Below, in pieces: positions 19,560 through 20,208 of a DNA stretch of 64,000 nt. Under the pieces are notes generated by a model. It saw nothing but the letters and a program-made list of their open reading frames with translations, did not search any database and had not been told where the DNA came from. Source of the DNA: a virus; IMG/VR virus record IMGVR_UViG_3300045988_126669, positions 97,217 through 161,216 of that record; one strand, 5' to 3'. The number at the start of each line of letters is the position of its first letter. Positions within the stretch are counted from its first letter, which is position 1. The position numbers were made by a program, and so were the translations under genes.

Positions 19560-19690
19560 ATAGAATAATTGAGGCGTTGGGTGAGGGTGTGGTATGGTTT
19601 AAACGAGGATATCATCTGTTTAAGCAGTAAATTATTCTATTTATATATTATGAAGGAGTGGCAGAGCTGGTTGAATGCGGCACCCTGCTA

Positions 19691-20129
19691 TGAAAACTTA
19701 TACTAAAAAATATGGATACAAATATTTTAGGAAAAACAACTGAATTAGAAGTATTGCTTTATGTAACTAAGAAAGGTGTGTCTGTTTCAATTCCTTTTGG
19801 AGATAAAAATAGATATGATCAAATATGGGATATAAATGGTAAATTGGTAAGAGTTCAAGTTAAAACATCTCATCTTTATACAAAAAATACAGGAAAAGCA
19901 ATAGAATTTAAGACAACCGGTACTTCTAATGGTAAAACAACTTGTTATTCCAAAAATGATATTGATTATTTTGCTACATTTTGGGACAATCAAGTATATG
20001 TAGTCCCCGTGGAAGAAACTTCTTCTAAGAAAGTTTTGAGATTTGAGTCATCAATTAACTCTTCAAATATTTCTTGGGCGAAAGATTATACATTTGAGAA
20101 GGTATTTAAGGTATAAGCATTTTATAGCA
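19691..20129 (+). mobile_element. Insertion or intron in tRNA-Ser(GCT) carrying a PD-(D/E)xK nuclease gene
   Basis: Lies between the tRNA halves; contains ORF 19712-20116. Confidence 0.5.
19712..20116 (+). CDS. PD-(D/E)xK (Hjc/I-Ssp6803I-like) nuclease encoded inside the insertion that splits tRNA-Ser(GCT)
   Basis: G...E......KGVSVSIP.G.....YDQI.......LVRVQVKTS (D...QVK catalytic pattern); paralogue at 44897 shares IDYFATFWDNQVYVVPV. Confidence 0.6.
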   Translation: MDTNILGKTTELEVLLYVTKKGVSVSIPFGDKNRYDQIWDINGKLVRVQVKTSHLYTKNTGKAIEFKTTGTSNGKTTCYSKNDIDYFATFWDNQVYVVPVEETSSKKVLRFESSINSSNISWAKDYTFEKVFKV

Positions 20130-20208
20130 AGGTGTTGGCCTCATTTGGGGCCCGGAGGTTCGAATCCTCTCTCCTTCGCCATTAAATTTTAAATTAAGAG
20201 GATTAAGT

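Follow-up and report, generated by a model that had tools for sequence, protein, structure and literature searches.

The window analysed here comprises 64,000 nucleotides (nt) of the IMG/VR virus record IMGVR_UViG_3300045988_126669 (positions 97,217 to 161,216) and carries two tRNA genes, tRNA-Ser(GCU) and tRNA-Gly(UCC), which are each split in the anticodon loop by an insertion holding an open reading frame (ORF) for a predicted homing endonuclease (Table 1). The DNA is AT-rich, with a GC content of about 35%, and more than 25 tRNA genes were found in it by ARAGORN. A search of deposited phage genomes with the window returned no close relative; several IMG/VR viral contigs of 113-196 kb are 95-99% identical to it. 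The window, which covers 64 kb out of a genome of roughly 160-200 kb, therefore derives from a large gut phage with a recoded stop codon, so far seen in metagenomes only. Related viral contigs and loci are designated by L numbers in the following.

Table 1. Coordinates of the split tRNA genes, their introns and terminal helices, and the RNA-repair genes discussed in the text (positions within the window).
Feature	Position	Strand	Evidence
tRNA-Ser(GCU) 5' exon, nt 1-36, ends in anticodon GCT	19652..19689	+	identical to intron-less gene of L088
Intron 1, 439 nt, between nt 36 and 37	19690..20128	+	missing in L088, L082, L083
tRNA-Ser(GCU) 3' exon, nt 37 to CCA	20129..20181	+	intron-less L088 gene; spliced-product check
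Intron 1 ORF, 134 aa, I-Ssp6803I-family PD-(D/E)xK homing endonuclease (predicted)	19712..20116	+	PF11645, 2OST, phrog_5018
Intron 1 helix, 5' strand: helix A (anticodon GCT + ATGAAA) 19687-19695, unpaired A 19696, helix B 19697-19704	19687..19704	+	RNAfold minimum free energy
Intron 1 helix, 3' strand: helix B 20110-20117 (ORF stop codon inside), unpaired CA 20118-20119	20110..20128	+	RNAfold, family covariation
Intron 1 helix A, 3' strand (TTTTATAGC); final AGC pairs with anticodon	20120-20128	+	RNAfold, family covariation
tRNA-Gly(UCC) 5' exon, ends in anticodon TCC	44845..44880	+	intron-less alleles; spliced-product check
Intron 2, 455 nt, between nt 36 and 37, boundary unambiguous	44881..45335	+	missing in L162-L167
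tRNA-Gly(UCC) 3' exon	45336..45374	+	intron-less alleles; spliced-product check
Intron 2 ORF, 137 aa from ATG 44909; 141 aa from TTG 44897	44909..45322	+	PF11645; paralogous to intron 1 ORF
Intron 2 helix, 5' strand: helix A 44878-44886, unpaired A 44887, helix B 44888-44898	44878..44898	+	RNAfold
Intron 2 helix, 3' strand: helix B 45314-45324, unpaired CA 45325-45326, helix A 45327-45335	45314..45335	+	RNAfold
Phage RNA ligase, candidate sealing enzyme (putative role)	60418..61803	+	phrog_968 'RNA ligase', E 1.5e-64, residues 3-438
RNA-repair cluster neighbour: cREC	55287-55607		
RNA-repair cluster neighbour: RlaP-like nucleotidyltransferase	56221-57027		
RNA-repair cluster neighbour: metallophosphoesterase	58146-58880		

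Neither split gene is detected by ARAGORN without intron search; with intron search, split tRNAs are reported at 19652-20181 and 44845-45374. The first-pass annotation of this DNA had claimed that both tRNAs are intact once the insertions are removed, and this holds. Excision of 19690-20128 in silico yields a canonical tRNA-Ser(gct) of 91 nt with a long variable arm and an encoded CCA, to which the intron-less gene of contig L088 is identical at 91/91 positions, and excision of 44881-45335 yields a canonical tRNA-Gly(tcc) of 75 nt, likewise with an encoded CCA. The coordinates assigned to the Gly insertion at first pass stand, and those of the Ser insertion (19691-20129) are to be shifted by a single nucleotide. 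The Ser boundary is ambiguous by one A, both placements giving the same length and product, and it is homology with the rest of the family that places this intron at 36/37 (19690-20128), not at 37/38.

An exact-pattern scan for the predicted spliced Ser junction retrieved 16 viral contigs, in three of which the whole tRNA-Ser gene is identical to the predicted product at 89-91 of 91 positions. The intron-less gene of L088 lies between flanks that share 97.6% identity with the window, the alignment being interrupted at 19690/20129. Likewise, six contigs (L162-L167) with flanks 95-99% identical to the window feature an intron-less tRNA-Gly, and their alignments break precisely between 44880 and 45336. 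The Enterococcus phage EFP01 carries a related insertion of 463 nt between T36 and A37 of its tRNA-Asn(GUU), whereas in more than 60 sister Schiekvirus genomes this gene is uninterrupted and annotated. The signature of homing, a precise presence or absence in near-identical genomes, is thus found both in the clade of the window and in EFP01 compared to its sister phages. As the intron-less alleles occur in near-identical contigs and the breaks are exact, the insertions are precise and mobile; judging from these alignments, both window insertions were recently gained or lost.

Each insertion consists almost entirely of one ORF, as had been noted at first pass, with 134 codons in intron 1 and 141 (from TTG) or 137 (from ATG) in intron 2. 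The further claim that the two products are paralogous PD-(D/E)xK enzymes is supported by an identity of 37-38% and by the invariant pattern E11, Y35-D36, Q49-x-K51, of which the catalytic E11, D36, Q49 and K51 do not vary across 59 homologues. They are the only family members within the window, and the hidden Markov model of the family scores ORF 2 at 159 bits. The Pfam family PF11645 (PDDEXK_5) matches ORF 1 with an E-value of 2.4e-22 and ORF 2 with 5.8e-25 (80 and 88 bits at a cut-off of 26). The suggested likeness to I-Ssp6803I and the Hjc enzymes was also borne out. ORF 1 aligns to I-Ssp6803I (PDB 2OST) by sequence with E 2.4e-7, the alignment spanning GD..YD and QVK, and an AlphaFold (AF2) model of ORF 1 with a predicted local distance difference test score (pLDDT) of 90.6 retrieved 2OST as top match in Foldseek (E 5e-9, template modelling score 0.71-0.75), followed by archaeal Hjc resolvases. 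More than 350 homologues occur in metagenomes, none of which is named, and the PHROGs family phrog_5018 is without assigned function. By sequence and modelled fold, the intron ORFs belong to the I-Ssp6803I/PF11645 homing endonucleases, with site-specific cleavage of the intron-less allele as their predicted activity. In the homologous intron ORF of L004, an in-frame stop codon stands at the position of a Gln in the others.

A scan of IMG/VR viral contigs with ORF 2 alone found no relative, and a profile-based scan was therefore required. The latter yielded 65 loci, and the tRNA context was examined in the 58 closer ones (L009-L066); L067-L073 are distant partial matches near 31% identity, which stand outside the tRNA-context count. 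About 45 of the 58 loci lie within a tRNA gene, all of them at 36/37, as determined by testing candidate splice junctions with ARAGORN. The host tRNAs represent at least nine anticodons (Ser GCU, Asn GUU, Thr UGU/AGU/GGU, Gly UCC, Lys UUU, Val UAC, and Ile GAU). Intron lengths across the family range from 439 to 495 nt, besides a few introns of about 655-675 nt in which the ORF has a C-terminal extension, and introns with ORFs diverged to 35-60% identity are still located in cloverleaf-perfect tRNAs. The family has a cultured member in EFP01 (NC_047796.1), where the split tRNA-Asn(GUU) at about 105242-105777 is unannotated in the RefSeq record and the intron ORF is labelled 'hypothetical protein' gp109. 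Free-standing members outside tRNAs were found as well, namely in L016 and L019 and in Kuttervirus phages, which possess a homologue in their tRNA cluster, in Kuttervirus PM10 next to tRNA-Asn. At L160 (2940-3440), the anticodon 3' stem and the variable arm of the host tRNA are deleted, and in L025 (IMGVR_UViG_3300033463_000941) all that flanks the intron is a mini-exon resembling an anticodon stem-loop, located between two complete tRNAs; these are two decay or ectopic stages of the element. In L018 (IMGVR_UViG_3300037400_005432; 1248-1799), the intron resides in a class II tRNA with a Ser-like long variable arm and the anticodon GUU (Asn), which may be a decaying gene or an unusual decoder.

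Both ends of the introns are predicted to pair with each other and with the anticodon. The first 17-20 or so intron nt pair with the last 17-22 or so, the final three of which are taken up by the anticodon, and the order along the folded precursor is the anticodon stem, U33-A37, helix A, a small internal loop, helix B, and the ORF in the terminal loop. In helix A (9-10 bp), the final 9-10 nt of the intron pair with the anticodon plus the 6-7 intron nt that follow it. The adjoining internal loop features an A opposite CA in most introns, in the context 5'-CAA A CU / AG CA UUG-3', and helix B (5-13 bp) contains the stop codon of the ORF. The 5' splice site is situated 3 bp inside helix A and the 3' site at its base on the opposite strand, resulting in a 3-nt 3' stagger around the anticodon. 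The long-range pairs appear in the RNAfold minimum free energy structures of both whole 530-nt precursors. Among 35 non-redundant introns, 30 have all three anticodon positions paired with the final three nt of the intron; 2000 shuffles averaged 7.9 and reached 16 at most. In a gap-free alignment of 14 introns, 95.2% of the cells are paired (66.9% when shuffled, 27-42% with slid partners), and changes on both sides were observed in 20 of the 21 helix pairs. Moreover, the last three intron nt track the anticodon of the host (AGC, AAC, ACA/AUA, AUU, AAA, GUA, AUC, GGG), and in nine different tRNA species the start of the helix coincides exactly with the exon-intron junctions. Helix A holds 37 G.U pairs as opposed to four A.C pairs (p = 5e-8), an excess which points to selection on the sense-strand transcript rather than on a DNA inverted repeat. 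In the tRNAs of the window and of the related loci retrieved, no ORF-less mini version of the helix was found. On this comparative evidence, the anticodon and the two ends of the intron make up a conserved RNA helix with strong covariation, which sets both predicted splice sites opposite each other.

Bacterial and phage tRNA introns are generally taken as self-splicing, and almost all of them as group I. For the insertions described here, the first-pass annotation had doubted that they could hold a free-standing group I core, and rightly so. The non-coding sequence amounts to about 22+12 nt in the Ser intron and 28+13 nt in the Gly intron, and to about 35-50 nt across the introns of the family; the conserved catalytic core of group I (P3-P9) takes at least about 180 nt of structured RNA. 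In bacteria, even ORF-less tRNA group I introns are no shorter than 184 nt, and every one that holds an endonuclease gene is longer than 500 nt (PMC13011429). The same annotation had found that the boundaries do not cleanly obey the rule of a U before and a terminal G within group I introns, which is now clear from the family: the Gly introns follow C36, and the last intron base may be C, A, U or G, tracking the anticodon complement, with no conserved terminal G. Searches of Rfam with the window intron regions gave no match to any family, group I (RF00028), group II and ribozymes included, either at the gathering threshold or at E<=10, and 20 related loci gave no group I or group II match at E<=0.1. 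The group I model is insensitive, as it also missed the group-I-like 349-nt intron of tRNA-Leu(UAA) in the window and, in another study, 36/37 tRNA-Thr introns (PMC13011429). This negative result is weak alone, and the exclusion of group I, which was rejected on all these counts, therefore rests mainly on the size and boundary rules.

Group II introns are characterized by a 5' GUGYG, a 3' AY, domain V, a reverse-transcriptase ORF and a length above 600 nt. This class was rejected on the grounds of the variable 5' ends (AUGAA, UUCCG, UCAUC, CAAUC and others, versus GUGYG), an ORF that encodes a PD-(D/E)xK nuclease instead, and the absence of an Rfam match. In a bulge-helix-bulge (BHB) intron, the splice sites lie in two 3-nt bulges with a 4-bp helix between them. 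Here, the 5' site is inside a continuous helix of 9-10 bp and the 3' site at its base, and the canonical register, drawn by hand, is not formed, with mismatches C-A and C-A on the Ser precursor. Known RNases were considered as well. RNase III as sole cutter, with its 2-nt 3' stagger, would leave or remove one nucleotide where the junction requires a stagger of 3 nt, and it may still contribute. RNase P and RNase Z acting on an acceptor-like minihelix would meet a 5' site 6-7 bp from the loop and a 3' site 3 nt beyond the helix end, which is a misfit for RNase Z. Excision at the DNA level by the endonuclease cutting at both junctions would produce the overhangs GCT and GCT, which are not cohesive, and the 37:4 excess of G.U pairs favours RNA. 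Three options had been left to choose from at first pass, namely an ORF-overlapping group I core, BHB/endonuclease-ligase splicing using the encoded RNA ligase, or no splicing. Of these, the combination of endonuclease and ligase is the best supported, although not via a BHB motif, which is not formed.

We propose, with a probability of roughly 55%, that the insertions represent a new type of enzyme-spliced, ribozyme-less mobile tRNA intron, whose transcript would be cut by a nuclease and possibly sealed by a phage RNA ligase. At the DNA level, the endonuclease would cut the intron-less tRNA gene at the anticodon, and repair would copy the intron in. In the precursor tRNA, a protein nuclease and not the RNA itself would cut at the two helix-defined sites, the tRNA body would hold the halves together, and an RNA ligase would seal the nick in the anticodon loop. 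The candidate for sealing in the window phage is the ligase listed in Table 1. Its match to PF09414 (E 7e-6, 26.7 bits) is just under the cut-off of 27.0; the ligase profile match covers the nucleotidyltransferase domain, and homologues annotated as 'RNA ligase' occur in Bacillus phage PBC2 and in mycobacteriophages. The ligase family was found on at least nine intron-bearing contigs and also in Lak phages. The RNA-repair-like cluster around it spans 49004-63377 and further includes a DUF2828/DUF7788 (vWA/TROVE-like) RNA-binding protein, a major-vault-protein homologue (51521-54019), a Macro/phosphatase-like protein, and an HslV-like peptidase.

Several observations weigh against this proposal. 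The splice-site register was partly chosen by maximizing pairing, which makes the pairing statistics somewhat generous, although the controls are still far apart. The length of helix A differs between introns (9 or 10 bp), and the A/CA loop is missing in the Lys(UUU) clade and in EFP01; a simple ruler from the loop therefore fails. EFP01 has no match to the ligase family at E<=1e-5, and the co-occurrence of ligase and introns is partial. Thus, this ligase is not a universal sealing enzyme and its assignment is tentative. Besides the intron ORFs, no candidate nuclease was found in the 64-kb window. In addition, some copies are located in decayed or partial tRNAs (L160; L025, L033), and part of the family, at least, therefore persists without a working host gene.

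This last point fits a different explanation. Phage tRNAs are often dispensable, and the insertions may be selfish homing-endonuclease genes which are not spliced and have inactivated such tRNAs, the halves still being intact from recent invasion, while the terminal helix would serve the endonuclease messenger RNA by way of stability, release by a double-strand RNase, or translation control. We regard this as a serious alternative, albeit a considerably less probable one. That the insertions are recent is shown by the 95-99% identity between the window and its relatives, and both the decayed host tRNAs and the free-standing relatives, located between Kuttervirus tRNA genes and outside tRNAs in L016 and L019, suit a gene independent of splicing. 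Nevertheless, it leaves unexplained that the final three nt of the intron are adapted to the anticodon of each host tRNA, that the helix starts exactly at the junctions in nine tRNA species, and that the tRNAs are cloverleaf-perfect even where the ORFs have diverged to 35-60% identity. A sub-case of the enzyme-spliced intron, which we consider doubtful, assigns two functions to the intron-encoded PD-(D/E)xK protein, namely DNA homing endonuclease and RNA splicing endonuclease on its own precursor. The helix would then mimic the left half and the centre of the DNA target, the same two positions would be cut, the 5'-phosphate/3'-OH ends would be suitable for direct ligation, and an RNA-repair ligase would close the nick. 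The RNA splice sites indeed flank the anticodon with a 3-nt 3' stagger, and I-Ssp6803I is reported to cleave DNA with that very geometry (Bonocora and Shub 2001). By direct reading, the RNA duplex (nt 27-36 with the intron end and nt 37-43) also matches half of the DNA homing site. To our knowledge, no PD-(D/E)xK restriction-like enzyme cleaves double-stranded RNA, which counts against such a dual role. In its favour, the PD-(D/E)XK superfamily includes tRNA-intron splicing endonucleases (PMC3424549), and I-Ssp6803I is a tetramer that uses two of its subunits in cleavage (PMC3384342). EndA, however, is not among the top 50 fold matches in Foldseek, the right half-site is not mimicked by the inner half of helix A, and the alignment shows no evident conserved second active site.

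A hidden ribozyme that splices itself, be it a group I core that overlaps with the ORF or a small ribozyme of unknown kind, might be expected since the homologous I-Ssp6803I and its bacterial relatives reside in group I introns of tRNA genes (PMC13011429), and the insensitivity of the Rfam model shown by the window tRNA-Leu(UAA) intron works in the same direction. Yet, the whole intron measures 439-490 nt including an ORF of about 400 nt, as against more than 500 nt in known endonuclease-bearing group I introns, and ORF divergence to 35% identity leaves scant room for a conserved overlapping core. Together with the missing terminal G, the Gly 5' exons ending in C, and the lack of any ribozyme family match at E<=10, this renders a ribozyme very improbable. 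Even less credit can be given to an intron of archaeal/eukaryal BHB type, cut by an EndA-like enzyme and joined by RtcB. The pairing of anticodon and intron and the anticodon-loop site do recall archaeal and eukaryal tRNA introns, and functions that heal cyclic phosphate ends are encoded in the window (cREC, metallophosphoesterase). But the splice sites lie outside 3-nt bulges with 4-bp spacing, with a mismatched register in the Ser precursor; the last three intron nt are paired instead of bulged and covary with the anticodon; the site is 36/37 and not 37/38; and no EndA-like protein was found among 30 window ORFs scanned against Pfam or PHROGs, the window covering 64 kb of the roughly 160-200 kb genome.

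Mobile endonuclease-bearing tRNA introns are known; the splice-site architecture and the likely splicing route described here match no described class. By protein, the closest system is the group I intron of cyanobacterial tRNA-fMet with its endonuclease I-Ssp6803I, which shares the endonuclease family, the anticodon-loop host site and the presumed homing lifestyle. In Bacteroidota and Campylobacterota, PF11645 endonuclease genes are also carried by tRNA-Arg(UCU) group I introns, and the known I-Ssp6803I-type cases are group I introns of 500-900 nt with the ribozyme around the ORF, the tRNA-fMet intron being inserted at 33/34 (PMC13011429). In contrast, the window introns feature no detectable ribozyme, the site 36/37, a long simple helix with the anticodon, and phage tRNAs as hosts. 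By logic, the nearest are archaeal BHB introns with a homing-endonuclease gene of the LAGLIDADG type, such as the I-DmoI intron in 23S rRNA. These are likewise mobile, possess an endonuclease ORF and lack a ribozyme, and if the proposed enzymatic splicing is true, both would have in common a protein nuclease acting at helix-defined sites across the intron, followed by ligation. Unlike them, the introns of the window show a non-BHB motif and a PD-(D/E)xK instead of a LAGLIDADG enzyme, and belong to bacterial viruses, for the hosts of which EndA is not known. Selfish nucleases targeting phage tRNA regions are also represented by T4 SegB (PMC2330249) and by the PF11645 homologue of Kuttervirus PM10, the latter belonging to the same protein family; those genes are intergenic and interrupt nothing, whereas the elements described here split a tRNA and exhibit an RNA pairing matched to the exon. 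The nearest by setting are the 'enigmatic' tRNA introns of Lak megaphages (PMC6784885), likewise anticodon-loop insertions, which do not differ between cohorts but are found in some related genomes and missing in others. The listed Lak introns are short (about 90 nt) with no endonuclease gene reported (PMC6784885), as opposed to the endonuclease-bearing class of about 450 nt with its helix. A search of the literature revealed no prior description of ribozyme-less endonuclease-bearing tRNA introns in phages.

Further tRNA genes of the window are interrupted as well. The tRNA-Pro(UGG) gene (24799-24961) has an 87-nt anticodon-loop insertion at about 24835-24921, which is itself tRNA-like (Rfam tRNA at 24833-24916, 35 bits) and missing in the 97%-identical L088; Lak phages have the same arrangement, reported as a 'tRNA inside a tRNA intron' (PMC6784885). 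In tRNA-Glu(UUC) (25703-25901), a 123-nt insertion after C36 features a stem of 7 bp (CTCAAAA/TTTTGAG) along with a hairpin resembling a T arm (GTTGG TGCAAGT CCAAC), and is without the helix of the endonuclease-bearing introns. The 349-nt insertion of tRNA-Leu(UAA) (43643-44079, insertion at 43678-44026) is located at the classical 34/35 site, follows a U, ends in G and contains R/S-like elements, and is probably a group I intron, judging from these features. It is missing in L162, L164 and L167, present in L163 and L166, and missed by Rfam at E<=10. Directly 3' of this gene lies a RAGATH-33 RNA (44093-44221), whose Rfam score of 126.8 bits exceeds the gathering score. In related phage contigs, the tRNA arrays hold Rfam matches to ROOL RNA, Y-RNA-like RNA (YrlA) and tmRNA (L038 2913-3423, L010 1-271, L064 1-118; L013 302-406; L037 693-1040).

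The recoding of the phage is evident from a suppressor tRNA(CUA) with a long variable arm at 26165-26254 and from the plus-strand ORF content of the window, which rises from 11,158 to 15,935 aa when TAG is read as sense. A subset of the plus-strand genes reads through TAG, the TAG-rich ones being structural or late genes, and TAG is absent from the other plus-strand genes, including both intron ORFs. Besides the latter, seven ORFs of the window resemble free-standing homing endonucleases, several of them scattered through the RNA-repair cluster. Four are paralogous (4331-5227, 50661-51404, 57312-58103, 59682-60425) and combine Zn-ribbon-like repeats (LTGQKFGKLTVL...CxCxCGN) with a C-terminal 'RFDFY...EYDGxQH' nuclease-like domain, and three are of the HNH type (14922-15407, 22381-22977, 46343-46903).

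The findings reveal that an endonuclease family occupies anticodon loops without a ribozyme and is widespread in large gut phages as well as in one cultured Enterococcus phage. As standard tRNA finders miss the split genes, illustrated by the unannotated tRNA-Asn of EFP01, the tRNA repertoires of phages are under-counted. If the introns are spliced, they would represent an undescribed enzyme-based tRNA splicing pathway in bacteria or their phages, which would bear on the origin of the enzyme-spliced introns of archaea and eukaryotes and of their PD-(D/E)xK-fold endonuclease. Should the intron-encoded protein, moreover, turn out to act on both DNA and its own precursor RNA, the elements would constitute a fifth, protein-only intron class in bacterial viruses and a living example of the proposed route from homing endonuclease to tRNA splicing endonuclease, and from group I to enzyme-spliced introns.

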